This document shows, one piece after another, positions 4,453 to 34,973 of a DNA stretch of 64,000 nt. The notes below the pieces were generated by a model. It saw nothing but the letters and a program-made list of their open reading frames with translations, was not told the DNA's origin and did not search any database. Both the position numbers and the translations under genes were made by a program. Source of the DNA: a virus. Position 1 is the first letter of the stretch. The number at the start of each line of letters is the position of its first letter. The stretch lies in the IMG/VR virus record IMGVR_UViG_3300004481_000389; one strand, 5' to 3'.

Positions 4453-4535
4453 GTCTTAAAGCCTTATATATTCGATGATTCAGACTATTTTAAACTTTTA
4501 AGTCTCTGTAAAGCAAAGCATGTTGTATTTATATT

Positions 4536-4676
4536 GTGCGTATAAGTGCAAAACTGCATAGCTGTATAGGTGCATAAGTGCAAGGTTGCATAGGTGCCAA
4601 TTTACCTTATCAATCTAGGCCAGGTGCATGAGTGCATAACTGCACGGGTGCAGAATTGCATAGGTGCATAACTGTG
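4536..4676. repeat. two blocks of about seven phased TGCA-core octamers
   Basis: Cores at 4547, 4555, 4563, 4571, 4579, 4587, 4595 and at 4625, 4633, 4641, 4649, 4657, 4665, 4673. A 30-bp gap separates the blocks. Confidence 0.8.
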
Positions 4677-4756
4677 TAGGCAGTATTGGAAAACCAAGTA
4701 AATCAGGCAAACAGGGCTAAATAGAATACCTCCATAGGCTCTATGGGAGTAAACAC

Positions 4757-18217: not shown

Positions 18218-19243
18218 GTGAGTAAAAATATAGTTTTTAATTTTGATGAAATCAGCAACAAGGATAAGGCCACTAAAGCCGTTTCCAACGCATTTAAAAA
18301 GGCCGGGGCTGCAATTGCCCAAGTAGACGTATCGCCTAGCGTAAAACGCACATCAGGGATCAGTTACCGTGAGCTAAGCATTACATTTGCGGATTCCCAG
18401 GTGATTGTTTTCCGTATTAAGCAATCTGGTGATATTTACCAGGCTTTGTTAAATGGCAAAGTGCGCCCAATTACCAATCAGGATGACCATACAGCAGCAA
18501 TTACCGAGCTGGCTAAGGCCATGGAATCAGGCCGTTCGGCATTCCAGGCAAAGCTGGCCAAAGCAAAGTTAAAGTTACCAAATGGTATTAAAACCACGGT
18601 GCCAAATAAGGAAAAATTGCTGATTGAAAAGCGTGATTCTTTAAAGGAGGCGGTAGCAGCTGCAGAGCAAGAGCTTAATCAGATCAAAGCTGAAATTGCC
18701 AAGTCTGCAACACTGGATTCTGTAACGCTCGATGCGGCTAATGATCCTTTCACGGAATTTGATCAACAAGCCCATGAAGCAGCCACTTCACCTTATAGCC
18801 GCACACCAGCACCAGCCTGGGATGATCTAATCGCGGGCAATTATAAAAAGGGTGCAATGACCATTGCCGGGATGAATATTTCTATTGAAAACCCGGCTGA
18901 ATCTATCCGTCAGGGTCAAGATTCAAACGGCGAAAAATGGAAAATCACAATGAAGCATCACTATGGCTATTTTGATGGCTCGATGGGTGCGGATGGTGAT
19001 GAACTGGATGTTTTTGTTAAAAACAATCTGGAAGTAGCGCCGGATCATGCCTATATCATTAGCCAGGTGGATCTTGACGGATCTTTTGATGAACACAAGG
19101 TTGTCATTGGTGCCGAAAGTGAAGATGAAGCAAAGGAAATCTATCACTCAAACTACAAAGCCGGATGGGATGGTTTTGGCAGTATCGAACGTGTGACCAT
19201 GGATGAATTAAAGGGCCGAATGCAGTACCAAGCAGCAGCTTAA
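18218..19243 (+). CDS. two-domain protein: N-terminal domain paralogous to the start of the 974-aa protein, and a C-terminal family-I inorganic-pyrophosphatase-like domain
   Basis: GTG start. ISIENP...HHYGYFDGSMGADGDELDVFV...DEHKVVIG aligns with E. coli PPase (IEIP...NYGYI...DGDPVDVLV...DAKLVAV) as I recall it. Confidence 0.55.
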   Translation: MSKNIVFNFDEISNKDKATKAVSNAFKKAGAAIAQVDVSPSVKRTSGISYRELSITFADSQVIVFRIKQSGDIYQALLNGKVRPITNQDDHTAAITELAKAMESGRSAFQAKLAKAKLKLPNGIKTTVPNKEKLLIEKRDSLKEAVAAAEQELNQIKAEIAKSATLDSVTLDAANDPFTEFDQQAHEAATSPYSRTPAPAWDDLIAGNYKKGAMTIAGMNISIENPAESIRQGQDSNGEKWKITMKHHYGYFDGSMGADGDELDVFVKNNLEVAPDHAYIISQVDLDGSFDEHKVVIGAESEDEAKEIYHSNYKAGWDGFGSIERVTMDELKGRMQYQAAA

Positions 19244-19257
19244 ACAGCTTTCAGGAA

Positions 19258-19282
19258 AACGGGCAATTTAGCCCGTTTTTTT
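19258..19282 (+). terminator. rho-independent terminator
   Basis: aacgggc-aattta-gcccgtt followed by a T-run. Confidence 0.8.
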
Positions 19283-19346
19283 GTCTCTAATATTGTTGAT
19301 TAAGTGAGGTGAAAGCCTTGTAAATTAACTATGTTAAGAGGTCTTT

Positions 19347-22271
19347 ATGACTGTGCAATTTAATTGGGATGGTGCCAATAACCCAGTCGGTCAAACAATT
19401 GACCAGATGCTTTACCGGATTCGCTCAAATGATAAAGAGGGCTTGATTTTTGATAGTGCGACCCTGGCTGATTTTATTGAAGATTCAGACGGCGTTATGG
19501 CGGTTTTTGATGCCTTAGTTACTCCATATTCACGCCTGGAACGCAAAGTGAATCAATTGCGCCTAGTGATGGACAAGGCAATTCCCGACCTGGAAACTGT
19601 ATCGGTCCAGGTATCCGAGCCATTTAAGCAAAATGGCAGTGTGCATGTAGCCGCTGTATTTGAATTATCTGATGGTCAGACGGTATCGGTGGTATTTCAT
19701 AACCCGGATTCAACGCCTAACAAACTGGTCGCCAGTGATGAAATGATTTCCTGGAAGTGGATGCTCAATAAAAAAGACATTACGATTGTTGTAGCGCCTG
19801 AAAATGGCCGTGACCTGGCTATTCGTGAAGTCGGCAGACGTATCATGAAACTGGCCCATAAAAACAGCACAGGCTTTGCCCGTTTAAACCAGAAGCGCGC
19901 CGAAAAACTTGAGAATATTAAGAATCTTACAGGCGAAGTAGAGCAGCTGGAACAAACGCTATCAGGCCTGGAAAAAGAGATTGAAGCGGCTAAGGCTGAA
20001 CAGGCCCGAATTGAGGAAGAAAAAAACAATATTCCAATGATCAAGCAGCTATTTGAAAAGCTGGTGCGCGGTGGCTGGAAACTGAAAAATGGCCATGACG
20101 ATTTTTTATCAAAAGAAGAATATGCCTTTGGTGCAAAATCCAATGTTGTTGTGGATTTTAATAGTTTCGATACTGTAAAAAGTGACATTGAAATTACAGC
20201 GGTGGGCGGTGGTTCCAAAACCATGCACATTGGTACCAGTGACCTTGAGGCTGAATTTGATGAATTTAAGATTATTGTAGAGGACTTGATGAGTGCCTTG
20301 CATGGTAATGGCACGGTCGATTCACTACTTAACCTCCTACAAAACACGTTCAAAATGCAATGTGAGCGCCTGGCCCCGTTAATCTTTAACGTAACTACGC
20401 CTAGAACAAGTAGCGGTGTAACGATTGAGCTTGATGATGATGGTACTTTCCAGTTTGAGAGTGATCATTTGTCAGTGGATCACTTGCAGGGTGAAGATAA
20501 TCAAGCCCTCATTGCTAAAAAACTAGATGAATTAGACTTTGTTGCTTCTCAGGGTGCTTTTGATGATGATCCAGAGCTTGAGGGTGATGTAATCCAGGGC
20601 GGCGTATTTAAGGGTAAATCTTTTGACTTTGCTTATACCATTGAGCAAATTGAAATCGCTGTTAATTCACTATCTAGTTTGTCTTTAGTGTTTGGTGACT
20701 TTAATCATACGGCGGCAGCTGGTGGCACCTTGTTCGATTCAATTGCTAGTGAATCTAACCCGCCAATTGAAGGTATTACTGCACAGATTGGATACAAGCC
20801 AACTGATATTGTTATGGCTAGGGTAAGTGTAGATGCAGCGGGTAATGCCATTATCTACAGAGGCGAAACAGGGACCACACAGGAAAGAGGCATTGATGCA
20901 CCGACCTCCTATAGCCAATTTGTACCTGTATTTAAGCGCCTGATTGCAGAGCTAACCAAAGAGCCAGAGCTAGAGGAAAAGCTACCTGAGTTAAAAGCCT
21001 ACCTTGATACATTTACCCCGTTAAAGCGTGGCCAAGTGCTTAAATCTCTATCACGTGCAGCCTATGATCTGGATGGTGCGCGTGTCACTGTTGCTGAAAC
21101 TGTAATTTCACTTGCCAAAAGTGAAGGTGCTAGAGTGGGCGTGAATGGCAAGGATGAAGTGTCTTTGATGAATGATAAGCACACTTTGAGCAGCAAACTA
21201 GGCAAGATCCCCATGAACTTTGGTATCTGGTTGATTGAAAGCGGCACTGTGAAGCCAAAACCAGCTGCACCGGAATCAAAATATCCGGATGACTTTGATC
21301 CGACTACTCCTGAAAATTATGCCCTGGTTAAAGAAAACGGTGATCTTGAAATGTTCCAGGATCAACTAGATGCGTTTTTCCAAAACCGTTTTATTGATGT
21401 GCGAAATGCTTTACGTGACCTGGGTTGGGAAGGTGAGCAAGGCCGTGACTTGAGCAAAAACGGATATACCGCAATTCCTCATTTCAAACAGGCGGGTGCG
21501 GGCGCTAACCTGGTAGGCATTCATTACACTTTAAACGGTCCTGATGGGAAGGATATTGGATTCTTTATGTCTGATACTTTGACCTTGAGCGCAGAGCAAT
21601 ATGCGGATCGTGTGAATATGGGTCTACCAGCACAACCAGAGCCAATTGTAGTTAATGGGAGTGACCCATTAGATATATCTATGGCGAATAAGCAGAATGC
21701 CATTCAATTAGCAGAAAACCTAAAGACTTTTAGCCAACAATCATGGGTTATGAGAACAACTTTAAATGATGTTAAAGATTTAAGTGTAGATCAGTTTAGA
21801 GAGCTTTATCAGGCTGATTTAGAGGCACTAAAGTCTGAGCATGATCAGGTGATTGCAGCATTTAATACATTGTTTAGAGCAGCTAAGGTTAAGGATCGGG
21901 ATGTTATTCAAGAAATAGCAAATGAGACAAATTCCATTTATAAGCTACTTACTCCAAAAGGCAAACAATTAGAATCTGAATGGCAGAAACTAGGTGGTGA
22001 ATATACAGCTTATCAAAAAAGTTTGAATACAGATCCAATCGTGGACCCAGATCCAGATACAGGGGATGATGAAATTAATACTTTCTTAAATGATGTAATT
22101 GCCAATCCTGGTAATCATACAAATGATGAATCACTGGACCGATTGACAGAACTTGCTGAAAGCCTGGGTGATGATGAAACAAGTGAATTTGCTATCACTG
22201 TGAATAAGGCAGCTAAAGCGGTTCAAGAAGTTGCATTTAAACAGCTTCAAGACATGGTAAGTCAGGGGTAA
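19347..22271 (+). CDS. large (974 aa) protein, candidate DarA-like capsid-internal protein
   Basis: The N-terminal beta-rich domain plus a coiled coil (aa ~190-225) resemble the N-terminus of the gene at 18218. The rest is unrecognised. Confidence 0.4.
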   Translation: MTVQFNWDGANNPVGQTIDQMLYRIRSNDKEGLIFDSATLADFIEDSDGVMAVFDALVTPYSRLERKVNQLRLVMDKAIPDLETVSVQVSEPFKQNGSVHVAAVFELSDGQTVSVVFHNPDSTPNKLVASDEMISWKWMLNKKDITIVVAPENGRDLAIREVGRRIMKLAHKNSTGFARLNQKRAEKLENIKNLTGEVEQLEQTLSGLEKEIEAAKAEQARIEEEKNNIPMIKQLFEKLVRGGWKLKNGHDDFLSKEEYAFGAKSNVVVDFNSFDTVKSDIEITAVGGGSKTMHIGTSDLEAEFDEFKIIVEDLMSALHGNGTVDSLLNLLQNTFKMQCERLAPLIFNVTTPRTSSGVTIELDDDGTFQFESDHLSVDHLQGEDNQALIAKKLDELDFVASQGAFDDDPELEGDVIQGGVFKGKSFDFAYTIEQIEIAVNSLSSLSLVFGDFNHTAAAGGTLFDSIASESNPPIEGITAQIGYKPTDIVMARVSVDAAGNAIIYRGETGTTQERGIDAPTSYSQFVPVFKRLIAELTKEPELEEKLPELKAYLDTFTPLKRGQVLKSLSRAAYDLDGARVTVAETVISLAKSEGARVGVNGKDEVSLMNDKHTLSSKLGKIPMNFGIWLIESGTVKPKPAAPESKYPDDFDPTTPENYALVKENGDLEMFQDQLDAFFQNRFIDVRNALRDLGWEGEQGRDLSKNGYTAIPHFKQAGAGANLVGIHYTLNGPDGKDIGFFMSDTLTLSAEQYADRVNMGLPAQPEPIVVNGSDPLDISMANKQNAIQLAENLKTFSQQSWVMRTTLNDVKDLSVDQFRELYQADLEALKSEHDQVIAAFNTLFRAAKVKDRDVIQEIANETNSIYKLLTPKGKQLESEWQKLGGEYTAYQKSLNTDPIVDPDPDTGDDEINTFLNDVIANPGNHTNDESLDRLTELAESLGDDETSEFAITVNKAAKAVQEVAFKQLQDMVSQG

Positions 22272-22274
22272 AAA

Positions 22275-22664
22275 ATGAATCAATTGCTATGGGGTGATCA
22301 GCCTCATAGCCGTTTTGCTGTCCTTGACAGTGTTTCCCCACTTGAAGCACTTAAAAACAGCCGGGCGGCCATGGGTCTGATTGCTGAAAAACCCAATCTG
22401 AAAAAAACAACTGAAATCATGAGCTGGACCAAAAGAGCAGCTGCTCTACTGGGGTCCATTAATGAAGTCTTGCACCCATCCTTAGAAATCCTGAAAAAGA
22501 TTGGCCAGGGTGCTTATGACCATGAAACCCTCTATTCATTATGGGCCATGATGGATAGTAATTTAGATGAATTGAGCGCAGACAAAGCGTTTAACGATAA
22601 GGCGGGAAGTCTGACGCACAAAGCTATTTCCCGTTGGGCTGAATTGGAGTTAAAGAATGTTTAA
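22275..22664 (+). CDS. small protein, paralogue 1 of a putative adaptor/chaperone
   Basis: ALKNSRAAMGLIAEKPNLKKTTEIMSWTKRAAALLG resembles ALTRKALKLIAEKATTKTTMAVLRWNKEALALLG in the gene at 25044. It overlaps the next gene by 8 nt. Confidence 0.5.
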   Translation: MNQLLWGDQPHSRFAVLDSVSPLEALKNSRAAMGLIAEKPNLKKTTEIMSWTKRAAALLGSINEVLHPSLEILKKIGQGAYDHETLYSLWAMMDSNLDELSADKAFNDKAGSLTHKAISRWAELELKNV

Positions 22665-24645
22665 TAATGACTACAAAGCGGTTAAAAGCCGACTGGGTTA
22701 TTGCTTTGACTTGCTGACGGCCAAAGACATGACCAAAGAGCAAAATTCTGAAAAGAATAGCCTTCTTTTAAAGAAAAAGATCAATACCTTGCGCGCTTTA
22801 ATTGCGGGTCAAAATCTGCCAGCGCATGAAATCTTATTAACCTCAAATACTTCTATGTTCTCCTTTTTTAAGGACCAGATTAAAGCGTTTGAAGATGAGA
22901 CAGATGAAGCGGAAAAGGCTAAAAAATTACTTAGACTGAAAAACTTTATTGATGTGCAAACCGCCGCAATAAATCTTGATGCTACTCGCATGGTCAGTAT
23001 GGGCTATGAGCGCAATAAGGTTGCTACTAAGATCGCTGAAAATGCCAGCCTTATCACTGGCCTGGTTAAGCATACGGTTGAAAATTCAAAAATTAAGGGA
23101 ATGTTTGATCCAGAAAAAGCACGGTCCCTAATTGATGAAGAAGCTCGCAATACTACAGCTTACAATGCACAGTATAGCGCCGCCTGGAAGGTGTTAGTCG
23201 AAAAGCATGATTCGATTAGAGGGCCATTTCTTGAATTGCGTAAGAAAATGTTTGATGAGCTGGAAAGGGAGGGATCGACCCTGGAGCTACGCGAGACTAT
23301 CCGGGGAGAATACGCAGCCGACTTGAATGCTTTAGAGCAAAAGGCCGATGAAGAATATAAGAAGCTTAAAGCCAGTCTTTTTGATGACCTGGAGGCCAAC
23401 TACCAGGCCCAAAAAAATCGTATCGCAGCTGAAAAAATCGCAATGGCCAGGGCGGTTAAAAATGCTGTCATTGATCAGTCGACCGTGACCCAGGAAGATG
23501 CCGAAAAGTGGATTGCAGAAAAGGTGACTATCACTCAAGCTGTGATCAATAAGATGAAAAAGAATGGCATTACGCCTGAGAAGTTTCACCAGGATCTAAA
23601 AGACTTTTTTGTTATTACTAATGGCCGCCTGGGTAAAATTAAGATTGATACCAAAAATCACCAGAGAGCTTATGCCAGCGGCACAACGACCCATGCAACT
23701 GAGGGTTTTATCATGCTGGATAATGACTTTAGCCAGCGGGTATTATGGCATGAATTGGCGCATCATTTGGAATCTGATGATAACTTGCGTGTTATTGCTC
23801 AAGAGTACATTAAATCCAGATCGCTTGATGGAAAACTGGTACACCGCTTACGCAATCTGACCGAAAATAAGGGCTTTGCAGCTAGTGAAAAGGCATATAA
23901 GACAGATATGTTTAATCACTATGTTGCCAAGATCTATGATCATGGGTCCACAGAGGTTTTCTCTATGGGTGTTGAGGTTCTGTATGACGATGCAGTCTTA
24001 TTCGATACCATGTTGAAAGACCCTAAAACTATTGAATTTGTCACAGGCGCATTGATGCAGACAAAGCAAGAAGTGGATCTTATTAATCAACAATTAAGAG
24101 ATAGCATCCTTAACATAAACGCTGATATTGATAATCTCAGGACTGAACAGTATCAAGAGGTTTTTGAACAGCTGGCGGGCCTGGTGAAATTCAGTACCAC
24201 AGTTAATGTCACTGAGGCTGACTTTACCGATCCTGATGCCACTAGATTCTTTAGTGAATGGAAGTCTAAATTTTATGGCACCTTAACATTGCCAAATGGC
24301 CGCGAATTGGTCCTTCTTAAAAGTGGTAAGGTGAAATATAGATCTTTCCGTGGTCGTGCCATGAAGGGTGTATTCGCTTTAGACTTTGGAAACTATGAGC
24401 ATGTCAGGGAGGCAATTGCAGAGGGCCGATATACCACTTATTTTGCTTATGGTTACGGCGTGAAGGAGGAAGTTGCTTTAGCCATCCAAACACAGGACCT
24501 TGACCGGATCAAAGTGTTAGCTTTATCAATGGATTTGCACAAGGTTGGCGGGTATAGTATCCCTAATACTTCTGGCGAAATCGGTGAGGGCTTCACCTCA
24601 TTTGAAAGCTTAGATAATCTCAAAAGACAATATTTACAGGGCTAG
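22657..24645 (+). CDS. 662-aa protein with a zincin HExxH motif (possible polyvalent-protein-type metallopeptidase)
   Basis: WHELAHHLE at nt 23746-23772. The N-terminal half is a long helical region. Confidence 0.45.
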   Translation: MFNNDYKAVKSRLGYCFDLLTAKDMTKEQNSEKNSLLLKKKINTLRALIAGQNLPAHEILLTSNTSMFSFFKDQIKAFEDETDEAEKAKKLLRLKNFIDVQTAAINLDATRMVSMGYERNKVATKIAENASLITGLVKHTVENSKIKGMFDPEKARSLIDEEARNTTAYNAQYSAAWKVLVEKHDSIRGPFLELRKKMFDELEREGSTLELRETIRGEYAADLNALEQKADEEYKKLKASLFDDLEANYQAQKNRIAAEKIAMARAVKNAVIDQSTVTQEDAEKWIAEKVTITQAVINKMKKNGITPEKFHQDLKDFFVITNGRLGKIKIDTKNHQRAYASGTTTHATEGFIMLDNDFSQRVLWHELAHHLESDDNLRVIAQEYIKSRSLDGKLVHRLRNLTENKGFAASEKAYKTDMFNHYVAKIYDHGSTEVFSMGVEVLYDDAVLFDTMLKDPKTIEFVTGALMQTKQEVDLINQQLRDSILNINADIDNLRTEQYQEVFEQLAGLVKFSTTVNVTEADFTDPDATRFFSEWKSKFYGTLTLPNGRELVLLKSGKVKYRSFRGRAMKGVFALDFGNYEHVREAIAEGRYTTYFAYGYGVKEEVALAIQTQDLDRIKVLALSMDLHKVGGYSIPNTSGEIGEGFTSFESLDNLKRQYLQG

Positions 24646-24924
24646 ATGATGGATATAAATACAACGGCGTTAAAAGTGCATACACCTAAAGGCTCATTCT
24701 TTGCTGTCTTTCCAGATGATGCTAAAAACTGTGAATTGTGCGGTCCCTGGCTTGAGGCAATTGGCTACTTTGAGGGTAACTTGCATAAGCTATTTAAGCA
24801 GCATGGCCATCCGCTAGAGCTGGCACGGTTGGAGCCGGGAGACCTCATGCTGTATGGCAACCGTCCGGATCTTGAAATTTCCATTACTGATGACTTTGAC
24901 CGTGAAGAACTGAGAATGATTTAG
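24646..24924 (+). CDS. hypothetical small protein
   Basis: 92-aa ORF that starts directly after the upstream stop. Confidence 0.5.
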   Translation: MMDINTTALKVHTPKGSFFAVFPDDAKNCELCGPWLEAIGYFEGNLHKLFKQHGHPLELARLEPGDLMLYGNRPDLEISITDDFDREELRMI

Positions 24925-24941
24925 TAGTAAAAATAACCAAA

Positions 24942-24971
24942 AAAGGCCCTTCCAAGTGAAAGGCCTTTTTT
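24942..24971 (+). terminator. rho-independent terminator
   Basis: aaaggcc...ggccttt followed by a T-run. Confidence 0.6.
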
Positions 24972-25043
24972 ATAGGAAAAACAAAAGAAAATAAGAAAAA
25001 TTATCTACCAACATACAAGCTGTTTCACTTGTATGGAGTAGTG

Positions 25044-25403
25044 ATGAAAAGCCTTCAATCACTCGCTTTGACCCGAAAGGCTTTAAAGCTAATCGCAGAA
25101 AAAGCAACCACTAAAACCACGATGGCAGTTTTACGCTGGAATAAAGAGGCACTGGCTTTGCTAGGGCAAGCTTTTCCCAAAATTAAAACTGATGAATCGA
25201 ATCCTGATTACCAGTATTTGCAGTCTGTAATTAAACGCGAATTACCCAATATGAATGACCCCGATATTGGCAATCGCATGACAGACATTCTTAACCGAAA
25301 TTCAGAAAACTCGGCATTCCTTTCGTATGTGCAACAAGCCGTTGCTGCATACCGCGAAGCCTTGCTTGCTGCATCCACTCAATTTTTATGGGGTAACGCT
25401 TAA
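25044..25403 (+). CDS. small protein, paralogue 2 of the putative adaptor/chaperone
   Basis: The ATG at 25044 has a GGAG RBS; the track TTG is at 25029. Its stop overlaps the start of the 2242-aa gene (TAATG). Confidence 0.5.
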   Translation: MKSLQSLALTRKALKLIAEKATTKTTMAVLRWNKEALALLGQAFPKIKTDESNPDYQYLQSVIKRELPNMNDPDIGNRMTDILNRNSENSAFLSYVQQAVAAYREALLAASTQFLWGNA

Positions 25404-28400
25404 TGTTTGGCATTTTATTCGATGATGCTGGCAATCCTAAATTGACCACACAGGCGCTTGAGCTTACTAGCAAGCTGCAAAATATTGTTGATAGCCTCAA
25501 AACGCCACAAAATAGCCTAGAAGGCCTTTTGTCTGAAATTGGCACTATCACACGTGGTAATCACTTAATTGCGGATTTGAAGCAATTAGGCGGCAATATC
25601 GGCGGTGTTTCATTGCAAATTAATGATGATCCAGCAATTCCATTGTCAAAACCACGTAAAAAGACGGATCAGCACTACAATTTCCAGCAAAACAACACAA
25701 AGAACAAACGCCAAAAGGACAACATTGCGGCGGTGGAATTGGTGCGCCAATACAATGCGGGTGAAATCACTTTAGATTCCATTACCGATGAGCAAAAAGA
25801 CATTTTAGGCCGATACACCGGGAACGGCGGCAACTTGCTCGATGTGGAAACAGGTATGCGCGGCTCAGACTATGAGTATTACACGCCTAAGCCTATTGCT
25901 TCTGGTATTTGGGACGTTCTAAATGATATGGGCTTTGGTGGCGGTAAAGTGCTGGACCCATGCGCTGGTGTAGGTATTTTTGGTGCTACTGCACCATTAA
26001 ATGCGGCTATTGATGCTGTAGAGCTGGATAAGACTAGCGGCACGATCAATAAGCTGATTAATGAATCAGACAGCTATAACGTGCGTGTAAGTAATTTTGA
26101 GAGTGTGGCAGCGCGTACACCAGATGAATCATACGATGCCATTGTGGCTAACGTTCCATTTGGTAGTAATCGCGGTCGTAACTTCAAATACGATGAAAAA
26201 TACCAGAAAGCTAGTCTTGAGTATTACTTCATCATGCGTTCCCTGGAAAAGCTTAAAGGCGGTGGCTTGGCTGCATTCCTGGTACCGGATCGCTGCATGA
26301 CAGGCAAATCAAGTAAAGAACGTGCATTGCGCCAGGATTCAAGCCTACTGGGTGAATTTTTGGGAGCGTATCGCTTGCCTAACAAAGTATTTGGCGCTGC
26401 AGCAGCAGATACCATTACTTGTGTGATGTTCTACCGCAAACATAGCAAAGCGGCTTTAGAGAAGGTCAGCGACCTCTATTCTGGTGGTGAAGCTAAGACG
26501 CTTTCTGATGCTCAAGTGCTATGGGATTCATTTGTTGATGGCAAATACTTTGAAACCAGCGAAGGTAAAAAGCGCGTCCTGGGTGATGACTTCATCAAAG
26601 CAGAGGAAGGCGATAAATACGGGCGTGATCAACTAACTTCTAGTGAAGATATTTTGGCAATCGCTAAGCGTATGCTGGTTCACAAATTGCCGAAAACCCG
26701 TATTGACTGGGCTTTGCTGGATGAAACCGAAGCTTTCCCAATTTCTTACAATGAAGGCGATACCATTACCCAACGTGGCCAGACTTTGCAGCTGGTGAAT
26801 GGTAATTGGGTCGTATTGAATCCAAGCCCTGAAAACAACGCAAAAATGGACCTGCTAAGTGATGCACAGGACCCATACAGTGCTTTTGTTTCCAATATTA
26901 CGATTGAACAGGTCGATGAATTAGCCGACCACATGAAAAAAATGTCTATGGCGCTGGATATGCCGCCGTGGATGGGTCAAATGCGTGTTGCTTTGGCGGG
27001 TGGTAAAACCCTGGACCAACGCAAGCAGCTTTACAAGCCAATCCTGATTGGTATGTGTGTAAAGCAGATCATGGATGAGGAAGGGCTAGATTCAGGCACC
27101 AACTTCAAAGAGAAATACCAGGATCTATCGGCTGAAATGGAGCGTTACGCCTCAGATGCCAATAAAGTGAAAGGTGTTGAAGGTGAAGCGAAGCTTGCAA
27201 TCCTGGAATACAAAAAGCATTACAAGAAAGGGACCGGATTTAGCTCAATTTGGCTTGGTGAAATTCGCCAGGTAACAGAAGTTGAAATGACCCCGGACGC
27301 AAGCCTGGACGGCGTGATTTATGTGAATAAATCGCCGTGGTTCACTGTTGAACAGGCTAGAGCCTCACTTGGTCCAGACTTTGACCCATTTAAGGACCCT
27401 GAATACTGCCTATCTGATGATGGCAATAAAATCTGTCGTTCTGATGATTACTATGTTGGCAACCTGGGTGAGTTTTTAAAGCGGATCGATCCGGCAATTG
27501 AAAATGCAGCCAATGATTCAATCCGAAATAAGCTACTGGCACAGAAAAAGGCGGCGTTTGAACGTGTGACTAAGATCGATGTTCAAGAAATGCACTTCAA
27601 CCTATTTTCGCCATACGTGACGATTGAAGAAAAAGCAGAGTTTTTGCGCCGTTCCGTACATGCCAGTGCGCGTGTGGTTGATGTTGATGGTGAAAAAACA
27701 ATTTCATTCAACGTAACTTCATCGGAAAAGGATAAAAACAATCGTGCCAAGTACATTGGCCGCCTGGAAAGCTATTTGAAGCATGGCAATGTCTCCTTGC
27801 AGGGCATTAAAATCGAAGGTATTTCTGAGGAAAAGCAGCTCGAAGAACTCCGAAGCTTTATCAACAAAACCAACGATAAATTTAATAGCTATGTGCGTTC
27901 TAATACCAGGATTACTAACCGCCTAGAAAGTACGGCAAACGATCCTAAAAACATGCGTTTTAAGCAGCTTGAAGATACTAAGGACTTGATTGTTCAAGGT
28001 ATGAATCCAGAGCTTAAATTGCACACGTATCAACGCGCTTTCGTGCGTAAAATGTCGCGTGATTTCAGCGGTATCAATGGCTTTGATGTGGGCTTAGGTA
28101 AAACCTTTACGGCACTTGCATCGGTCCAATACGTGCAGTCTATTGGCGTTAAAAAGCGCACTATGTTTGTGGTCCCAGGATCGGTGCTATCAAACTGGCG
28201 TAAAGAAGCATTGCGGGCATATAAAACGATTGATGATTGTTTGTTTGTGGGCTTGCGTGAAAACGGTGATGGCAACCTAATTGCTGATTCCAAGTATTAC
28301 GATGAAGATTTAATGTCGATTGTGAGCAACAAGCCGAATAAGATTTTTATCAGCTTTGAAGCTTTTGAGCGCATTAAATTAAAGGCTGAAACTATTGAGC

Positions 28401-31400
28401 ATTTTGAGAATCATATTCGCTCGGTTGATGCCTCGTTTATGGAAGATGATAGCCGTAAAAATGAGGAAAAAACCCAGGCGAAACTTGAAGGCCTAACCGC
28501 TATTTTGTCGAAAAAGACAGGCGCGGCACCTTATCTTGAGCAATTGGGGATTGATTCAATCGTGATTGATGAAGCCCATGCTTATAAAAACTCAAGTGCT
28601 GTGCGTGAATTTAAGGGCGGTAAATACCTATCAACCGCTGGCATGTCTGGCCGTGGTATCGATGCACAATGTAAGGCCTGGTTTATCCGTGGTATGTCGG
28701 ATCGTAAAGACGGCGTATTGCTACTGACTGCTACCCCGATTACCAATAGCCCGCTTGAAGTCTATTCAATGATGAGCCTGGCGGTTGGCCATGAGCGCGT
28801 GAACAGTTTAGCTATGGGTGTATCTGGTGCTGATGACTTCATGAATGCTGTGTGTGTCATGGAAGATGAACAGGAAGAATCTATCGATGGCCAAATGAGT
28901 AACAAGCGTATCTTTAAAGGCCTAAGTAACCCGGCAATGTTACGCAATCTTATTTCTGATGTGGCCACAATTAAAACCGCCGATGATGTAGGCGCGCAAA
29001 TCGTGGTACCAGATGAAGATACTCAAGAAACGATAGTAACGCTTGATAAGTATTCCCAGGATAAGCTGGATACTTATAAGAATGCCTATCGCTATGCTAT
29101 GGACCTGATCCGTGACCGTGCTTTGCCATTTGGCCCAGGTGTGGCGGCGTATGATTACGTTAAGCAGCAATTTGGTGAAAAGGACGATGTAATCGCGCAT
29201 CCATTTAACTTGATCAATAAAATGACGATGTTAATTGCCGATCCTGACCTGGATAAGCAATACACCAAGTACGTGATTGGCCAGGACCAAAAAGAGGCAC
29301 TTGATAAGGTTCTAGCTGAGTGGGATAAGAAGCGACCTAAAGAGGACCGTGGCCGTATTAGCCCGCATACTCAAGAAAGCGATTACTCCTTAAAGATCAA
29401 GAAGAACAAGGATACAGGTGAGGAAACAGCGATTTATACAATTCAGGTTCGCGCCTGGGCTGATAATGCCAATGTTTACCTGGATTCTACCGACTGGAAA
29501 ACACAAGAAGCATTCGAGACGCTGGCCGAAAAACACGGACTAGGCCTGGATTGCGTCATGTCTCCAAAAATGGCCGCTATGATCGATAACCTCAAGCGTG
29601 AAAACTCGCATGTTCGCGGTGTGAATGCTCAAGGTGAAAAAGCGCCGTATGCGAAACAGATTGTTTTCTGTGACATTTTGGGTATCCACAACAAAATGCG
29701 TAAGTTGATCGCTAAGCATTTAGGTGTTTCAGCAAGCCAGATCGCTATTGTGACCGGACAGCGAAATAATGATGCAGCTGAAATTTTGGAGATTCAAAAT
29801 AACTTCAATGATTATGGTGAAGATAACTATCGCATCATCATTGCCAACAAGAAGGCCGAAGTCGGTATTAACTTGCAAATCGGTACTCAGGCAATTCATC
29901 ACTACACAATTGGCTGGACCCCGGATAGCTTGCAACAACGTAACGGTCGCGGTGTGAGACAGGGCAACAAGACAGAAAAAGTAACTGTGTATCATTATGA
30001 CGCGCAAGGTACTTTTGATGCAGCTAAGCGCACCCTGGTAAACAATAAAGCTGACTGGATCGGTGAGCTGATGGACGGTCAAGGTTCTGAGAGCATTAAG
30101 ATTGTAGGCGGTATGTCCAATGAGCAGATCCGGGCGCTGGCTGAATTTGCGGGCGGTGATGCTTTAGAAGCCATGCAAGCCGAAATTGCACGTAATGAAA
30201 AAATGCGTCATGAAAAGGAAAATGTGGAGCGTCAAAAAGCATTACTTGAGACGGCAAAACAGCAACAAGACTTTCTTGATAAGAACAAGGATTTTTCAGG
30301 ATGGGTTAAACGTGACTTTGATGCTTTGATGCAAACCGCCTCAAGTGTCGGCAAGCTGGAACGTTTAATCAAAAAAGAAAATGATCTTAAAGCTGATCTA
30401 GCTGAAATCGTAGCAAGTAGTGGCTCAGTGAAGGACGTACAAGCCAAACTGAACAATATTGAGAAATCAAAACTCAAGCTTGAAAACGAAATGCGCCAGG
30501 CGAATAAGCTAATGGCTCGTATTGCCGGGGCGGTAAATGCGGTAGTTGCAAATTACAACTTTGAGCAAATTGCACCAGATAAAGCAGCGTATGTGATCAA
30601 TAAAAAGTTCCGTGAACGTGCTGAACAGCCACATTCTAAGGCCACACTTACAGATACTTTTTATGATCATGAAGATGGTGTGCGTTATGGCGTAAAAGTG
30701 AAGGCTAAGGAGGAAGTGGAAGGCTCAGAACTTTACAATGAGTGGAGCTTTGAGGTTGATTCTGCAGCTGGCTTGATCCGTGAAACGGTGAAGCAATTTA
30801 AAGAACGTGCGAAGGTTGATAATTCAATCAATGAGCGCGTGATTGATGACTTTATCGGTGAAGATCGAAATGGCCAGATTAGCCCGTCCGGTGTTTTATT
30901 TTCAAAGTCTTGTTTCCTGGTGAAAAACAACGACCCTAAACAAGCGGTTTATTACTTTACAGGTGTGCCACAAGAAAATCAGTATGGTTCTAAAATTAAG
31001 GGCTTGATCAATGGTGAAAGGACCGATACTGAATTTAACTATGATTTTGTAGATCAACCTGAGTACAGCGTGGCTTATCCTGATTCTGATTTATATACGC
31101 AGTGCTGCATTGCCCTGGCTGAATATGAAGATTCATTGGTAGGCACCGTTTCCACTAAAGAAGGCAACCTATTTAGTGATGTTATGCCGGATATTTTGAA
31201 ATATCGTAAGGGTATTATCGAAATCGCTTTTGAGTACGCTAACAGCTACTTGCAGGGCCACTATTACCCATACGTGATGAATGCACATGAGCCAGATAAA
31301 TTGAGCGATTTTGAGAAAGCAGTTGTTAAACAGCAATCAGAAATCGTATTGAGACATACGAAATATCATTTCTATGTATTGGCTGAAAATGAGCATTTAA

Positions 31401-32131
31401 TTACCAAAAATCGCCCGACCATTGGTAATAAAACCGCAGTGATCCGTGACTTTTGTTTAGCCAATAACTTTAAGGCCAGTGTTTCTGATATTCCGGTATC
31501 TTTTAAACTGTCTGTTGAATTGGCGAATTACATTCGAGAAGGTGATGCTAAGGATCGATTATTTACCTTTATTGACCGGGCAAAATTTGAGACGGTGGCT
31601 GCATTCCGTGAAGCTTTGGCCCAGGTGGTATGTGATGAATTTACACCGTTTATTCATGATATGGAGCCGGATACGTCAATCATGCTGGACGTAGTAGATC
31701 GAGTTTATGAGGTGAGTAATATCTATCGCACTAAACAAGCTGAAATTCTGGCAATTGAGAAAGCAGCTCAAGCGATTAATGCACCGGAAGTACAAGAGCC
31801 TCAGCCGATTGATGTGACGATCCATGAGCCGGATATAGAGCCTGGTGCTATTCCAAAAACTGCAATCATCCGTGTGGAGACTAACGGCTTTAATACTTTG
31901 CCGTATCGTGAAAAATTCCGGGAATATTCGGATGAGATTCAAAATGCGACAAGTTATGCTAAACCTGATCATTGGTCGAAGTACAATAAGCGTTTTAGCA
32001 ATGCCTCCGCTTGTTGGAATAAACCGCTTAAACAGTGGGAAATTCCATACGGTGCATGGCAGCTATTCGAGCAGCGTGATAGCGAACTGACAGATGCTTG
32101 CACATTCACAGTAATTTATGGCGGGGTTTAA
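25403..32131 (+). CDS. 2242-aa N6-adenine methyltransferase plus SNF2-type helicase fusion (P1 DarB-like)
   Basis: Methyltransferase motif I VLDPCAGVGIFG (aa ~183) and motif IV IVANVPFG (aa ~248). Helicase motifs are GLGKT (aa ~897), VIDEAHAYKN, LLLTATPITN and QQRNGRGVRQGN. Confidence 0.75.
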   Translation: MFGILFDDAGNPKLTTQALELTSKLQNIVDSLKTPQNSLEGLLSEIGTITRGNHLIADLKQLGGNIGGVSLQINDDPAIPLSKPRKKTDQHYNFQQNNTKNKRQKDNIAAVELVRQYNAGEITLDSITDEQKDILGRYTGNGGNLLDVETGMRGSDYEYYTPKPIASGIWDVLNDMGFGGGKVLDPCAGVGIFGATAPLNAAIDAVELDKTSGTINKLINESDSYNVRVSNFESVAARTPDESYDAIVANVPFGSNRGRNFKYDEKYQKASLEYYFIMRSLEKLKGGGLAAFLVPDRCMTGKSSKERALRQDSSLLGEFLGAYRLPNKVFGAAAADTITCVMFYRKHSKAALEKVSDLYSGGEAKTLSDAQVLWDSFVDGKYFETSEGKKRVLGDDFIKAEEGDKYGRDQLTSSEDILAIAKRMLVHKLPKTRIDWALLDETEAFPISYNEGDTITQRGQTLQLVNGNWVVLNPSPENNAKMDLLSDAQDPYSAFVSNITIEQVDELADHMKKMSMALDMPPWMGQMRVALAGGKTLDQRKQLYKPILIGMCVKQIMDEEGLDSGTNFKEKYQDLSAEMERYASDANKVKGVEGEAKLAILEYKKHYKKGTGFSSIWLGEIRQVTEVEMTPDASLDGVIYVNKSPWFTVEQARASLGPDFDPFKDPEYCLSDDGNKICRSDDYYVGNLGEFLKRIDPAIENAANDSIRNKLLAQKKAAFERVTKIDVQEMHFNLFSPYVTIEEKAEFLRRSVHASARVVDVDGEKTISFNVTSSEKDKNNRAKYIGRLESYLKHGNVSLQGIKIEGISEEKQLEELRSFINKTNDKFNSYVRSNTRITNRLESTANDPKNMRFKQLEDTKDLIVQGMNPELKLHTYQRAFVRKMSRDFSGINGFDVGLGKTFTALASVQYVQSIGVKKRTMFVVPGSVLSNWRKEALRAYKTIDDCLFVGLRENGDGNLIADSKYYDEDLMSIVSNKPNKIFISFEAFERIKLKAETIEHFENHIRSVDASFMEDDSRKNEEKTQAKLEGLTAILSKKTGAAPYLEQLGIDSIVIDEAHAYKNSSAVREFKGGKYLSTAGMSGRGIDAQCKAWFIRGMSDRKDGVLLLTATPITNSPLEVYSMMSLAVGHERVNSLAMGVSGADDFMNAVCVMEDEQEESIDGQMSNKRIFKGLSNPAMLRNLISDVATIKTADDVGAQIVVPDEDTQETIVTLDKYSQDKLDTYKNAYRYAMDLIRDRALPFGPGVAAYDYVKQQFGEKDDVIAHPFNLINKMTMLIADPDLDKQYTKYVIGQDQKEALDKVLAEWDKKRPKEDRGRISPHTQESDYSLKIKKNKDTGEETAIYTIQVRAWADNANVYLDSTDWKTQEAFETLAEKHGLGLDCVMSPKMAAMIDNLKRENSHVRGVNAQGEKAPYAKQIVFCDILGIHNKMRKLIAKHLGVSASQIAIVTGQRNNDAAEILEIQNNFNDYGEDNYRIIIANKKAEVGINLQIGTQAIHHYTIGWTPDSLQQRNGRGVRQGNKTEKVTVYHYDAQGTFDAAKRTLVNNKADWIGELMDGQGSESIKIVGGMSNEQIRALAEFAGGDALEAMQAEIARNEKMRHEKENVERQKALLETAKQQQDFLDKNKDFSGWVKRDFDALMQTASSVGKLERLIKKENDLKADLAEIVASSGSVKDVQAKLNNIEKSKLKLENEMRQANKLMARIAGAVNAVVANYNFEQIAPDKAAYVINKKFRERAEQPHSKATLTDTFYDHEDGVRYGVKVKAKEEVEGSELYNEWSFEVDSAAGLIRETVKQFKERAKVDNSINERVIDDFIGEDRNGQISPSGVLFSKSCFLVKNNDPKQAVYYFTGVPQENQYGSKIKGLINGERTDTEFNYDFVDQPEYSVAYPDSDLYTQCCIALAEYEDSLVGTVSTKEGNLFSDVMPDILKYRKGIIEIAFEYANSYLQGHYYPYVMNAHEPDKLSDFEKAVVKQQSEIVLRHTKYHFYVLAENEHLITKNRPTIGNKTAVIRDFCLANNFKASVSDIPVSFKLSVELANYIREGDAKDRLFTFIDRAKFETVAAFREALAQVVCDEFTPFIHDMEPDTSIMLDVVDRVYEVSNIYRTKQAEILAIEKAAQAINAPEVQEPQPIDVTIHEPDIEPGAIPKTAIIRVETNGFNTLPYREKFREYSDEIQNATSYAKPDHWSKYNKRFSNASACWNKPLKQWEIPYGAWQLFEQRDSELTDACTFTVIYGGV

Positions 32132-32136
32132 AACTA

Positions 32137-32556
32137 ATGGCATTTTCTGAATTTTTATTCGATAAGGCCTATATTGATGAGGTGGCCGCAAATGCGGCTG
32201 CTTCACTCAAGGCAAATCGTGGTTTTTCTAACCTGGAAGGGTTCGCGGCTGGTGTAATTCAACGCCGTTTAGCAAAGGACCCGGCTCGTTATCTGGACTA
32301 TGGTGTTTATTGGCCAGCCTTAAAAGCGGTGCTGCATAAGCATGGCTTTGATTTTGGCGCGCCAGTTTATCCGCAACTTTGCGCGGTTTATTGCGGCGAT
32401 AATGACTTACAGACAATCATTATGGCTGATGAATTTAGGAATGATTATCTGGCCACTCAGTTTGTGGGTACCAGGACCTTTTTAGTCGATAAAGAGACGG
32501 GTGAGGAAATCATTTTGATCGATGATGACATGGAAGGGAAAGCCCTCAATTCATAA
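32137..32556 (+). CDS. hypothetical protein downstream of the giant gene
   Basis: The ATG at 32137 is preferred over the track start at 32098. 139 aa. Confidence 0.5.
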   Translation: MAFSEFLFDKAYIDEVAANAAASLKANRGFSNLEGFAAGVIQRRLAKDPARYLDYGVYWPALKAVLHKHGFDFGAPVYPQLCAVYCGDNDLQTIIMADEFRNDYLATQFVGTRTFLVDKETGEEIILIDDDMEGKALNS

Positions 32557-32561
32557 CCCTG

Positions 32562-32596
32562 GAAGGCCCGTTTAAATAGCGGGCCTTCTTGTTTTT
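32562..32596 (+). terminator. rho-independent terminator
   Basis: gaaggcccg-tttaaatag-cgggccttc followed by ttgttttt. Confidence 0.8.
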
Positions 32597-32610
32597 GCAT
32601 ATAGGAAAAG

Positions 32611-34188
32611 TTGCCGTTTTCACTCATGGGCCGCGTTTATCGTGGAATGATGAAAAATGTATCTAATTCTCCGAAAGGGCGCGGTAATTTTCTAAACAAC
32701 TTTGGCATTTCTGCTAAAAAATGGGGTTCGGAAAATTTACCACTCGCCAATGAAATCACTCAGACCGATCTAACATTATACGGGTCCGGTTCGACTACAG
32801 TTGCCTCTTTATTATCTAGTGGTTCCAGGACTGCTAGAACTCGTCAAAATATCTATGACAAATGGGCCTTAATGGAAAGTGACCCGATCATTTCCACGGC
32901 CTTAAAGATCCTTGTAACCTCCGCTTTGGGTGGCCATGAGACAAGCGGGGACCTGGTATTTTTGGAGACAAAACCAGGCCTGGCGAAAAACGATAAGCGC
33001 ATGAAGTATATAGACGAAATCAGGGCAGACCTGGTGCCGCTATTTAACAAAGTAGCTTATACAAGTAGCTACCTGGCTGCTGCTTTTGGTGATTCTTATG
33101 TCCGGGTTCACTCCAATAAAAATGGCATTCAGGATCTTTATATTGGTGAATTGGTACGCCCTACATTGATCCAACCGTTTGAACGTGGCAGTCGCACGGT
33201 CGGCTATGCTGTTTCCTCCGGTGCAAAGAATTTCCAGCGCCTCGATGCCCTCCAAATGGCGCGAATGAAGCTGCCCCGTACCCAGTGGATACCTCAAGTT
33301 GGTGTGGTCGAAAAATCAATGCGCTATGCGCTTGAAATCGATGATATGGATGAATTGCCACTTATGCCCGCAATGGTCGGCGGCTCACTCTTATATTCGG
33401 CTGAATCGCCGTATGACAACCTCACATCATCATTGCTTGGCCTGGTTGGTCAGCGGTGGATGGATTCAATCGATGAGCAGCTGCTCACAGTGAATCTTGA
33501 AGGCATGGATAAAAGCCAGCAATCACGCTTCCTGGAATCCATGAAAAAGATGCTGATTAAGTCTAAGCAAATTGCTGAAAACGCTGTGAAGCGTAACAGG
33601 CCTGTCATGGAGCGTATTCGTCATGTGGTCCCAGTATTCAGCGAAAAGCAGCTCACACAGGTTGCGGGCAATGTAGGCGGCCAGCGTAGTGCCAATGTAT
33701 CAATTGAGGACATTATGCTACATGCGCGCTTGCTGTCCGGTTCAATGGGTGTGGATCTGTCCATGCTTGGCTTTGCCGATCAGCTGGCGGGTGGCCTGGG
33801 TGAAGGTGGATTTTTCAGAACATCGGCCCAAATTGGGGAAAGCTCACGGACCATTAGAACGGCCCAGGCTGAATTTTATGATTCGATCATTGATATTCAC
33901 ACGTATAAAAAATACGGCTTTGTCTTTGATAAAAATGACCGTCCTTTTTCAATCAATTTCTATGGGTCCATTAGTGCGCTAGAAAACGAAAAACAGGCGA
34001 CCCGTGCCAATGCAATGAACGGCGGCTTGATGTTGGTTCAGGCCATGCAGCAATTTAAGGACCTGGGCGCTGATAAGGAAATGATGAAGCAATTTCTGAT
34101 GCAGACCATGTTGCTTGATGAGGATATTGCTCAGCTATACAGCGCAATTGTTGATGTTAAAGGGGGTGAGGATGAGCCTCTACAATAA
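32611..34188 (+). CDS. portal protein (head-to-tail connector family)
   Basis: NIYDKWALMESDPIISTALKILVTSAL matches the N-terminal portal signature (Y..y..M..dPeI..Al). 525 aa. Start uncertain: TTG at 32611 or ATG at 32626 or 32647. Confidence 0.55.
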   Translation: MPFSLMGRVYRGMMKNVSNSPKGRGNFLNNFGISAKKWGSENLPLANEITQTDLTLYGSGSTTVASLLSSGSRTARTRQNIYDKWALMESDPIISTALKILVTSALGGHETSGDLVFLETKPGLAKNDKRMKYIDEIRADLVPLFNKVAYTSSYLAAAFGDSYVRVHSNKNGIQDLYIGELVRPTLIQPFERGSRTVGYAVSSGAKNFQRLDALQMARMKLPRTQWIPQVGVVEKSMRYALEIDDMDELPLMPAMVGGSLLYSAESPYDNLTSSLLGLVGQRWMDSIDEQLLTVNLEGMDKSQQSRFLESMKKMLIKSKQIAENAVKRNRPVMERIRHVVPVFSEKQLTQVAGNVGGQRSANVSIEDIMLHARLLSGSMGVDLSMLGFADQLAGGLGEGGFFRTSAQIGESSRTIRTAQAEFYDSIIDIHTYKKYGFVFDKNDRPFSINFYGSISALENEKQATRANAMNGGLMLVQAMQQFKDLGADKEMMKQFLMQTMLLDEDIAQLYSAIVDVKGGEDEPLQ

Positions 34189-34969
34189 CATTGCGAAAAA
34201 ATCCAAACAATCGGGCCTGGTGAGCGCAATTACTAAAGGCGCTCAGTCTGTTGTTGGATCAGCTATTAACAAGACCATGAATAGCTCACTGGCCAGCCCT
34301 CTATTCGATCAGGCGGCCAAAATAGGTATTACGCCAGACCTGGCTAGTTTTGTGGCGAATGAGTTTGCCGGGCAATACATTTCAGACAAGGTTAGTGAAG
34401 CAGAATCATTAATCAAAAAGCAAATAAGTACCTGGATTAACAAGATTGGCGGGGGCTTTAAGGGGATTCCTGAAAAAGCCCAGTACCGTGAATTTATTGC
34501 GCTTAGTCGTGCCAGAAAAAACAATTTTATTGTTCAGGTTGAAAGTAATTTGACGGGTGATTTCTCCAAAAAGATGAATCTATTTGTCACAGACATAGAT
34601 TTAAACCCGATGAATATTTCAGGCGAAAAACGGCGGGTCGGTGGTGGATTTATTGATGCGCCGACCGGGGCCGAAGCTACTGAGATTCGTATCACAACTA
34701 TGGATGATAAGGCGGGAACGATTAAGAAGTGGTTTGAGCAGCAATGTGCTGCAGTCGTGGCTGCTGATGGGACATTTGGTGTGCCAGCCAGTTATGGAAT
34801 CACAATTAAAGTCTTACATGCTGTGGTGAATGGTCAAAACTCAAAAGATGCCTTTACTAATAAGGGGTTATATCGTGCGGCCTCTTATGAGGTGCAGTTG
34901 TCCCGCAGAGAACAGGCCATGCAAGAAGTGACCCTCACTTTCACTCAACTTGATTCATTTAGAAGGTAG
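34172..34969 (+). CDS. virion protein between portal and tape measure
   Basis: The ATG at 34172 has a GGGGGTGAGG RBS and overlaps the portal 3' end. 265 aa. Confidence 0.5.
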   Translation: MSLYNNIAKKSKQSGLVSAITKGAQSVVGSAINKTMNSSLASPLFDQAAKIGITPDLASFVANEFAGQYISDKVSEAESLIKKQISTWINKIGGGFKGIPEKAQYREFIALSRARKNNFIVQVESNLTGDFSKKMNLFVTDIDLNPMNISGEKRRVGGGFIDAPTGAEATEIRITTMDDKAGTIKKWFEQQCAAVVAADGTFGVPASYGITIKVLHAVVNGQNSKDAFTNKGLYRAASYEVQLSRREQAMQEVTLTFTQLDSFRR

Positions 34970-34973
34970 TAAA

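Follow-up and report, generated by a model that had tools for sequence, protein, structure and literature searches.

A probable Dar gene set in a temperate, P1-related Acinetobacter myovirus

The record IMGVR_UViG_3300004481_000389 of the IMG/VR collection was analysed as a single stretch of 64,000 nucleotides, called the window hereafter, and the subject of this report is a block of eight genes at positions 18218-32556, which is probably an anti-restriction (Dar) gene set of the kind known from phage P1. All eight open reading frames (ORFs) are co-oriented on the + strand, with tail and baseplate genes on their 5' side and a portal gene on their 3' side, and each lies at the coordinates given in a preliminary description of the locus, which had seen in them an island splitting the virion module. 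They encode, in order, an Hdf-like protein of 341 aa with DarA_N and InPase domains (18218-19243), a modular DarA-like protein of 974 aa with DarA_N (19347-22271), a 129-aa protein in the ddrA slot (22275-22664), a DdrB-like protein of 662 aa with homology to an HExxH peptidase (22657-24645), an acidic protein of 92 aa (24646-24924), a basic protein of 119 aa that is an N-terminal paralogue of the 129-aa protein (25044-25403; 124 aa from the start at 25029), a DarB-like methyltransferase and SNF2 helicase of 2242 aa (25403-32131) and a Ulx-like protein of 139 aa (32137-32556; 152 aa from the start at 32098). For the 119-aa and Ulx-like genes the shorter ATG starts are the ones preferred by gene callers on related contigs. 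Gene spacing across the island, as read from the sequence, consists of overlaps or gaps of 1-8 nt: the 129-aa and 662-aa genes overlap by 8 nt, the 662-aa and 92-aa genes meet at TAGATG, the stop of the 119-aa gene overlaps the start of the 2242-aa gene (TAATG) and 5 nt separate the DarB-like stop from the Ulx-like start. The domain content proposed in the preliminary description, namely a pyrophosphatase-like domain, an HExxH protein and a methyltransferase plus SNF2 fusion, was borne out by the Pfam families InPase, Eco57I and SNF2 and by a HELAH motif.

The 2242-aa giant is judged from its sequence to be a true DarB homologue, with predicted N6-adenine methyltransferase and SNF2 helicase activities. 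Pfam recognizes an Eco57I-type methyltransferase, SNF2/ResIII and Helicase_C in it, and tblastn aligns it with P1 DarB at 26% identity over 71% of the query (E ~1e-118) and with Xanthomonas phage Rb1 at 40.7% over 86% of the query. Among the PHROGs it matches PHROG 11801 (E 0) and the family "DarB-like antirestriction" (E 1e-71). Motif I of the methyltransferase reads LDPCAGVG, and motif IV reads NVPF, a non-canonical form identical to that of P1 DarB; the helicase part has a Walker A motif GLGKT at 897, DEAH at 1056 and Helicase_C at about 1444-1521, and the C-terminal ~550 aa hold no known domain. The Ulx-like protein encoded next to it matches the PHROG "Ulx-like anti-restriction" over its full length (E 1.6e-34) and P1 Ulx by BLASTP (37% over 63 aa, E 1e-8).

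The 341-aa protein consists of DarA_N at residues 7-105 (Pfam E 1.5e-20), a helical region to about 165, a linker and a C-terminal InPase domain at 206-333 (PF18823, type I inorganic pyrophosphatase-like, E 2e-45). It matches the PHROG "Hdf-like antirestriction" (E 8.6e-42), P1 Hdf (BLASTP 28% over 120 aa, E 2e-11) and the Hdf chain of the P1 head structure PDB 9ukm (E 5e-9), and by its sequence it appears to be an Hdf homologue bearing InPase as an additional cargo, with predicted enzymatic activity. The acidic signature of the InPase domain, DGDELDV at 259, is intact and fits what we take to be the family I pyrophosphatase signature, D-x-D-x-x-D (PROSITE PS00387). Furthermore, the domain matches residues 638-747, the C-terminal domain, of the solved gp19 portal in PDB 9b41 (chain L, 765 aa; E 1.8e-26), which is independent evidence of InPase travelling inside phage heads. 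In a set of 418 homologues that the DarA-like protein has in databases, InPase is the commonest fusion partner of DarA_N, and fusions to ddrB-ParB, PF18798 and PF11171 also occur. DarA_N, InPase and the DdrB-type metallopeptidase were defined by Iyer et al. in 2017 as domains of polyvalent phage proteins that are packaged and injected, with nucleotide-directed or inorganic pyrophosphate (PPi)-clearing roles proposed for InPase (PMC5512222). InPase is C-terminal on the Hdf-like protein in the window (18833-19216) and N-terminal on the DarA-like protein in Rb1 (7817-8284 of the compared region).

The 974-aa protein carries DarA_N (Pfam E 8.5e-42), is also assigned to the DarA family of the PHROGs, and matches P1 DarA by BLASTP (35% over 134 aa, E 2e-25) and the DarA chain of 9ukm by sequence (E 5.4e-23). 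Its AlphaFold2 (AF2) model has as its top Foldseek match the in-situ structure of P1 DarA (9ukm_I, E 2.5e-8), and the 366 aligned columns take in nearly all of the modelled part of DarA; Dar membership holds for the N-terminal two-thirds of the solved part of DarA. Residues 1-235, made up of an N-terminal extension, DarA_N and a coiled coil, are conserved across distant taxa. Residues ~240-640 (window 20064-21270) are replaced in close relatives by unrelated, longer sequence, the whole proteins being of 1205 aa (locus L003) and 1168 aa (L006), while the flanking ends retain 75-86% identity, so by sequence comparison this segment behaves like an exchangeable cassette. Residues ~650-765 form a module which is common to DarA_N proteins of distant taxa, is duplicated in some of them and belongs to no Pfam family, and residues 780-974 are a helical C-terminus. 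Foldseek gave no significant match for the C-terminal modules except P1 DarA, and Pfam searches with the separate segments gave nothing. An antisense ORF inside the DarA-like gene (19697-20353, - strand, 218 aa) is probably not a gene, its counterparts in relatives being 114 and 108 aa long; P1 has an annotated antisense ORF, iddB, inside ddrB.

The 662-aa protein is related to the C-terminus of P1 DdrB, which BLASTP aligns at 25% over 197 aa including WHELxHHLE and TEVFSM (E 9e-13), and the profile of its family matches DdrB in hhalign at a probability of 98.9% (E 1.3e-17; residues 267-473 against 772-990). It is laid out as a helical bundle (1-275), a zincin-type metallopeptidase core (~280-470) and a beta-rich C-terminal domain (510-662). 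The HELAH motif lies at 365-369, and H365, E366, H369 and E433 are invariant in 38 homologues, as would be expected of a gluzincin-type site. The AF2 model has a predicted local distance difference test score (pLDDT) of 91.7; as a whole chain it has no significant match in the PDB, its BFVD matches are all to uncharacterised phage proteins, the helical bundle and the beta-rich domain match no known fold, and a profile search of PDB sequences returned coiled-coil noise only. The gene is the fastest-diverging of the region, with 56-66% identity to relatives as compared with 80-88% for the tail genes and 79-85% for the DarB-like gene, which may reflect diversifying selection or recombination.

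Three small proteins complete the island. The preliminary description had called two of about 120 aa paralogous; BLASTP aligns the 129-aa and 119-aa proteins at 47% over 38 aa and hhalign at a probability of 96% (E 4e-9, 62 columns), and judging from these alignments the paralogy is real but confined to the N-terminal halves. The 129-aa protein, which belongs to a small family of 18 clusters among 1.84 billion representatives, occupies the position of ddrA, where Rb1 has a weak counterpart of it. The 119-aa protein has 82-87% identity in relatives and no match in the phage collection. Both were considered as DdrA equivalents and rejected as such, BLASTP, PHROGs, hhalign and tblastn all being negative. 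The 92-aa protein has no match in Pfam, PHROG, PADLOC or NCBIfam, and tblastn against 50,697 phage records found none; its gene is coupled to the DdrB-like gene and is kept in all Acinetobacter relatives (L003-L007) at 61-73% identity.

The eight genes had been described as three units bounded by terminators, and three stable hairpins with U-runs are indeed present; their folding energies were compared with those of shuffled sequences. An intrinsic terminator-like hairpin with a U-run at 19252-19283 (+ strand, -18.6 kcal/mol, z -7.3, equally stable shuffles 0/200) closes unit 1 together with the upstream tail operon. A second terminator-like hairpin, at 24937-24971 (-14.5 kcal/mol, z -3.1), closes unit 2 and lies between an A-run and a T-run, flanks which could let it act in both directions. 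A strong intrinsic terminator at 32561-32589 (+ strand, 12-bp stem with 7 GC pairs, -21.7 kcal/mol, z -4.6) closes unit 3 before the portal gene. Unit 1, however, is not bounded at its 5' side, where there is neither a terminator nor a gap. Because the 341-aa gene begins 8 nt past the preceding tail gene and has no terminator before it, it is better described as the last gene of the tail operon than as a separately bounded unit. When the late intergenic regions were searched for shared k-mers, only an AGGAAAA-type string emerged; it overlaps with ribosome-binding sites and with terminators and was dropped as a promoter candidate.

The genome around the island encodes head proteins of P1 type. 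The portal protein (32611-34188, + strand) is a homologue of P1 Prt (PHROG portal E 2e-166; BLASTP 26% over 447 aa, E 2e-39), the major capsid protein (7306-8958, +) is a homologue of P1 gp23 (PDB 9ukm_A Gp23, E 7.8e-18, residues 50-506) and the prohead protease (2505-3335, +) is a homologue of P1 Pro (BLASTP 29% over 174 aa, E 4e-19). The Pro homologue lies ~30 kb from the portal gene, so the prt-pro adjacency of P1 is not retained; a 284-aa gene following the portal gene (34115-34969) was considered as Pro and rejected, being unrelated to it. The window also encodes PmgG/PmgB-like proteins and a tail sheath. The island is preceded by a lysis cassette and by tail genes, including that for the tail tube; the gene immediately 5' of the island has a weak match to the P1 baseplate protein Gp5 (E 0.0019). 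Downstream, the portal gene is followed by genes for a tape-measure-like protein that contains a lysozyme domain, for a baseplate protein and for a tail fibre. The tape-measure-like protein (34950-38186, 1078 aa) has a phage tail lysozyme domain at residues 747-880 and a Gly-zipper match in Pfam that is below the cut-off (E 0.007); it resembles P1 Sit in kind and is without ddrB-ParB, unlike the ParB-lysozyme fusions of Acinetobacter prophages mentioned by Iyer et al. (PMC5512222). In addition, the window carries an integrase, a ParA-like protein, RecE/RecT, a repressor and a replication initiator, and these, together with the P1-type head genes, therefore indicate a temperate myovirus distantly related to P1. 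Arrays of iteron-like repeats of ~11 nt (TAAGTGCA / ATAGGTGCA / ATAACTGCA) at 2165-2504 and 4453-4756 flank the Pro-like gene and its neighbour and adjoin the ParA-like gene (1520-2164, - strand); these repeats, the ParA-like gene and the tyrosine integrase (45054-46277) raise the question whether the genome is kept as a plasmid, integrated or both.

At the DNA level the block had no match in the phage and plasmid collections searched with Megablast, and relatives were detected only through their proteins. The source names of marker-protein homologues are Acinetobacter variabilis and A. proteolyticus, with an uncultured Acinetobacter metagenome-assembled genome in addition, and the contigs bearing the Acinetobacter homologues are of ~77-80 kb. 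Five related Acinetobacter loci have retained the full set of eight genes; identity to L003 is 80-88% for the flanking tail genes, 81% for the DarB-like and Ulx-like proteins and 66% for the DdrB-like protein. One metagenomic ENA contig, NODE_4_length_78570 (L009, range 68640-72628), encodes a 662-aa protein 100% identical to that of the window and breaks off within the darB-like gene, as would fit a genome of ~78-80 kb assembled as a permuted linear contig. The closest annotated phage is Xanthomonas phage Rb1 (PQ569993, 46.6-65.0 kb), where the core genes are contiguous, in the same order as in the window and between baseplate genes, with identities of 40.7% for the DarB-like protein, 58% for the N-terminal part of the Hdf-like protein, 53.5% for the DarA_N region, 36% for the peptidase and 44% for the Ulx-like protein. 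In Rb1, however, the DarA-like protein bears InPase at its N-terminus and the Hdf-like one has DarA_N only, the hdf-like gene is followed by an insertion of six unrelated small genes, and the 92-aa and 119-aa genes and a portal gene after the ulx-like gene are missing.

The Dar system of P1 is the natural standard of comparison. In P1, Hdf is a small protein with a DarA_N domain whose gene adjoins darA, DarA combines a hexon-binding DarA_N domain with a helical and a penton-binding domain and is trimmed by the prohead protease Pro, and DarB has ~2250 aa. Six Dar proteins have been detected in P1 virions, each with an assigned role (PMC9024508), and where pentons meet hexons the inner surface of the capsid carries 55 DarA-Hdf pairs, which touch the DNA and are gone from emptied heads (PMC12810830). 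Loss of DarA or Hdf leads to loss of all the other Dar proteins (PMC12810830), and the system acts in cis against type I restriction-modification (R-M) and bacteriophage exclusion (BREX) (PMC12707154). Sequence, profile and structure comparisons link five of the eight window proteins to P1 Hdf, DarA, DdrB (its peptidase domain), DarB and Ulx, that is, to five of the six Dar proteins, which upholds the preliminary view of the block as Dar-like. The order hdf-darA-x-ddrB ... darB-ulx of the P1 annotation is matched in the window, the DarB-like protein shares with P1 DarB the NVPF motif IV and the SNF2 helicase, the darB/ulx pair adjoins a prt-type portal gene, and the two phages have the gp23, Prt and Pro types in common. 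The comparison drawn earlier between the giant gene beside the portal gene and darB beside prt thus holds, a true DarB homologue adjoining a Prt homologue. The composition of the island had also been thought unlike the P1 set, and this was largely wrong, the HExxH protein being the DdrB peptidase domain, the 341-aa protein Hdf and the last small ORF Ulx, with the order kept. Nor is the island "expanded", its eight proteins totalling ~4,700 aa against ~4,360 aa for the six of P1, and the pyrophosphatase-like domain, taken as a departure from the P1-type set, belongs to the commonest DarA_N architecture (DarA_N+InPase), described in 2017 (PMC5512222).

The differences from P1 are modest and of a sort, shuffling of domains and partners, already documented in the family. 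The window locus is single and contiguous, whereas P1 has two loci ~7 kb apart, and darB-ulx is co-oriented with the portal gene, whereas darB and prt of P1 are divergent. The Hdf homologue carries InPase; in the DarA homologue DarA_C is missing and unrelated modules make up the C-terminal ~700 aa; the DdrB homologue is without ParB, and its peptidase lies in the centre, not at the C-terminus as in P1; and two partly paralogous small proteins and the 92-aa protein are found instead of a DdrA homologue. The host is Acinetobacter, and identities to P1 are 25-38%. Two other comparisons place the island further. The polyvalent proteins (PMC5512222) likewise have DarA_N, InPase and MPTase in a virion-gene context with DarA_N cargo varying between proteins, but the window has these domains spread over several moderate-sized proteins and not in one giant. 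T4 IPI* and other capsid-packaged anti-restriction proteins are alike in principle, being packaged in the head and co-injected to block restriction, but there is no sequence or domain relation to the window proteins, and IPI* is a small protein that inhibits a type IV enzyme directly.

Because of the homology and synteny with the Dar and head genes of P1, the intact catalytic motifs and the embedding in virion operons, the block is read as the Dar gene set of a temperate P1-related Acinetobacter myovirus, to which we assign a probability of about 0.75, packaging and function being deduced from homology. The island is thus one more instance of the system already known from P1, not a system of another kind. 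Several points weigh against this reading. Virion presence, injection and the effect on restriction are carried over from P1 by analogy, and in P1 itself the mechanism of protection is still unresolved (PMC12707154). The identities are low and only parts of the DarA-like and DdrB-like proteins are covered by them. Pfam did not find DarA_C, which P1 DarA has at 411-472, in the 974-aa protein, and this protein reaches 91.5 bits on the NCBIfam DarA equivalog NF052326 against a cut-off of 350. The Pfam family ddrB-ParB, which matches P1 DdrB at 2e-39, has no match in the 662-aa protein, and tblastn found none anywhere in the window. As for DdrA, which was sought by sequence and profile comparison and not at the level of folds, the small proteins have no BLASTP match to it and no PHROG match even at E 10 (P1 DdrA hits phrog_1855 at 4e-57), hhalign with a 19-sequence profile gives a probability of 0.08%, and tblastn of P1 DdrA against the whole window gives only E >= 1.7; the roles proposed for the 129-, 119- and 92-aa proteins are drawn from gene position and coupling. 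Finally, a P1 late promoter motif, AAGTGAnnn-N4-TAnnnT, derived from the annotated LPpro, LPdar and LPlyz, is not found upstream of any island unit or of the portal gene (19244-19346, 24925-25043, 32557-32610), its single nearby match being at 25030 on the opposite strand, so late expression is deduced from gene position.

If the Dar reading is right, the genes would be expressed late together with the virion genes, as in P1. The Hdf-like and DarA-like proteins would dock in pairs on the inner face of the gp23-type shell through their DarA_N and helical domains and nucleate the loading of the others; the zincin domain of the DdrB-like protein may process its own chain, and the Ulx-like and DdrB-like proteins may aid the loading of the DarB-like giant. 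To judge from their positions, the 129-aa protein, coupled to the DdrB-like one, and the 119-aa protein, coupled to the DarB-like one, might be cargo-specific loading partners replacing DdrA. On infection all the Dar-like proteins would leave the head with the DNA, and the DarB-like methyltransferase-helicase would then act in cis, shielding that DNA against type I restriction and perhaps also BREX. InPase on the Hdf-like anchor would be an extra cargo present at the copy number of the anchor and acting early on PPi or a nucleotide-like substrate. The notion of exchangeable cargo is suggested by the switch of InPase between anchors in different phages and the swap of DarA-like residues 240-640 among close relatives. 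A bolder proposal, which we put forward tentatively and consider rather doubtful as a whole, is that the island is a compact, modular Dar cassette for capsid delivery, with DarA_N anchors bearing exchangeable cargo, a hitherto unrecognised family of loading adaptors (the 129- and 119-aa proteins, each translationally coupled to one large cargo gene) replacing DdrA, and an InPase at anchor stoichiometry countering a nucleotide-based host response.

The same variability of cargo could be taken to mean that the proteins are a general payload of packaged early effectors whose main targets are other than type I restriction, InPase degrading nucleotide immune signals or clearing PPi and the variable middle of the DarA-like protein and the domains of the DdrB-like protein hitting other defences or host processes. 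This would agree with the varied cargo of database DarA_N proteins (InPase, ddrB-ParB, PF18798, PF11171), with the swapped DarA-like middle and the faster divergence of unit 2 than of the flanking tail genes (66% against 80-88%), with the nucleotide-directed or PPi roles suggested for InPase (PMC5512222) and with the action of P1 Dar against BREX as well (PMC12707154). However, the largest and best-conserved component of the island is the homologue of DarB, whose only documented role is against restriction of the EcoK/EcoB type (PMC9024508), and the alternative targets are speculative because no module outside the known domains matched a characterised fold. We regard such a payload as unlikely, if somewhat less so than the explanations that follow.

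The proteins might also be mainly factors of capsid assembly or stability, concerned with head size or DNA anchoring, with anti-restriction secondary or lost. Head morphogenesis in P1 is disturbed when DarA or Hdf is lost, and the DarA-Hdf pairs bind both capsid and DNA (PMC12810830, PMC9024508), and the capsid protein of the window is a gp23 homologue. Intact methyltransferase and helicase motifs, the InPase signature and an invariant HExxH are nevertheless hard to square with a purely structural role, and both roles coexist in P1, so this explanation seems improbable.

Homology searches supported neither of the two other origins that the preliminary description had raised, host-type defence and tail morphogenesis, and five of the proteins match the Dar set instead. 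A defence system protecting the lysogen, with a methyltransferase and SNF2 protein like those of DISARM (defence island system associated with restriction-modification) or of the type I/ISP kind, was suggested by PADLOC and NCBIfam, where single domains of the giant protein match models for DrmD, DpdE, ZorD and type I methyltransferases. These matches cover only generic helicase and methyltransferase cores, DrmD scoring 59-63 bits against a cut-off of 610, and the other seven proteins have no PADLOC match, whereas the full-length match is to DarB and the genes lie inside late virion operons beside homologues of Hdf, DarA and Ulx; the defence reading was rejected on these sub-cut-off generic matches and the lack of PADLOC partners, and we consider it very improbable. 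Least probable of all are ordinary tail or baseplate morphogenesis genes, a reading which has in its favour only the position between baseplate and portal genes and was rejected with 0/8 proteins matching a tail family, five matching head-internal Dar proteins and two matching chains solved in the P1 head.

As a Dar gene set, the island reveals no new principle, but the multi-protein Dar system appears to extend beyond the enterobacterial P1-like phages, being near-complete and in the same order in Acinetobacter and Xanthomonas phages at 25-40% identity to P1. The comparison separates a conserved core, consisting of the DarA_N anchors, the DdrB peptidase domain, DarB and Ulx, from replaceable parts, which are DdrA, ParB, DarA_C and the cargo modules, and this division should be useful for dissecting the loading of the Dar proteins and their individual roles. 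It is also of relevance to phage therapy and to the engineering of Acinetobacter phages to cross restriction barriers.

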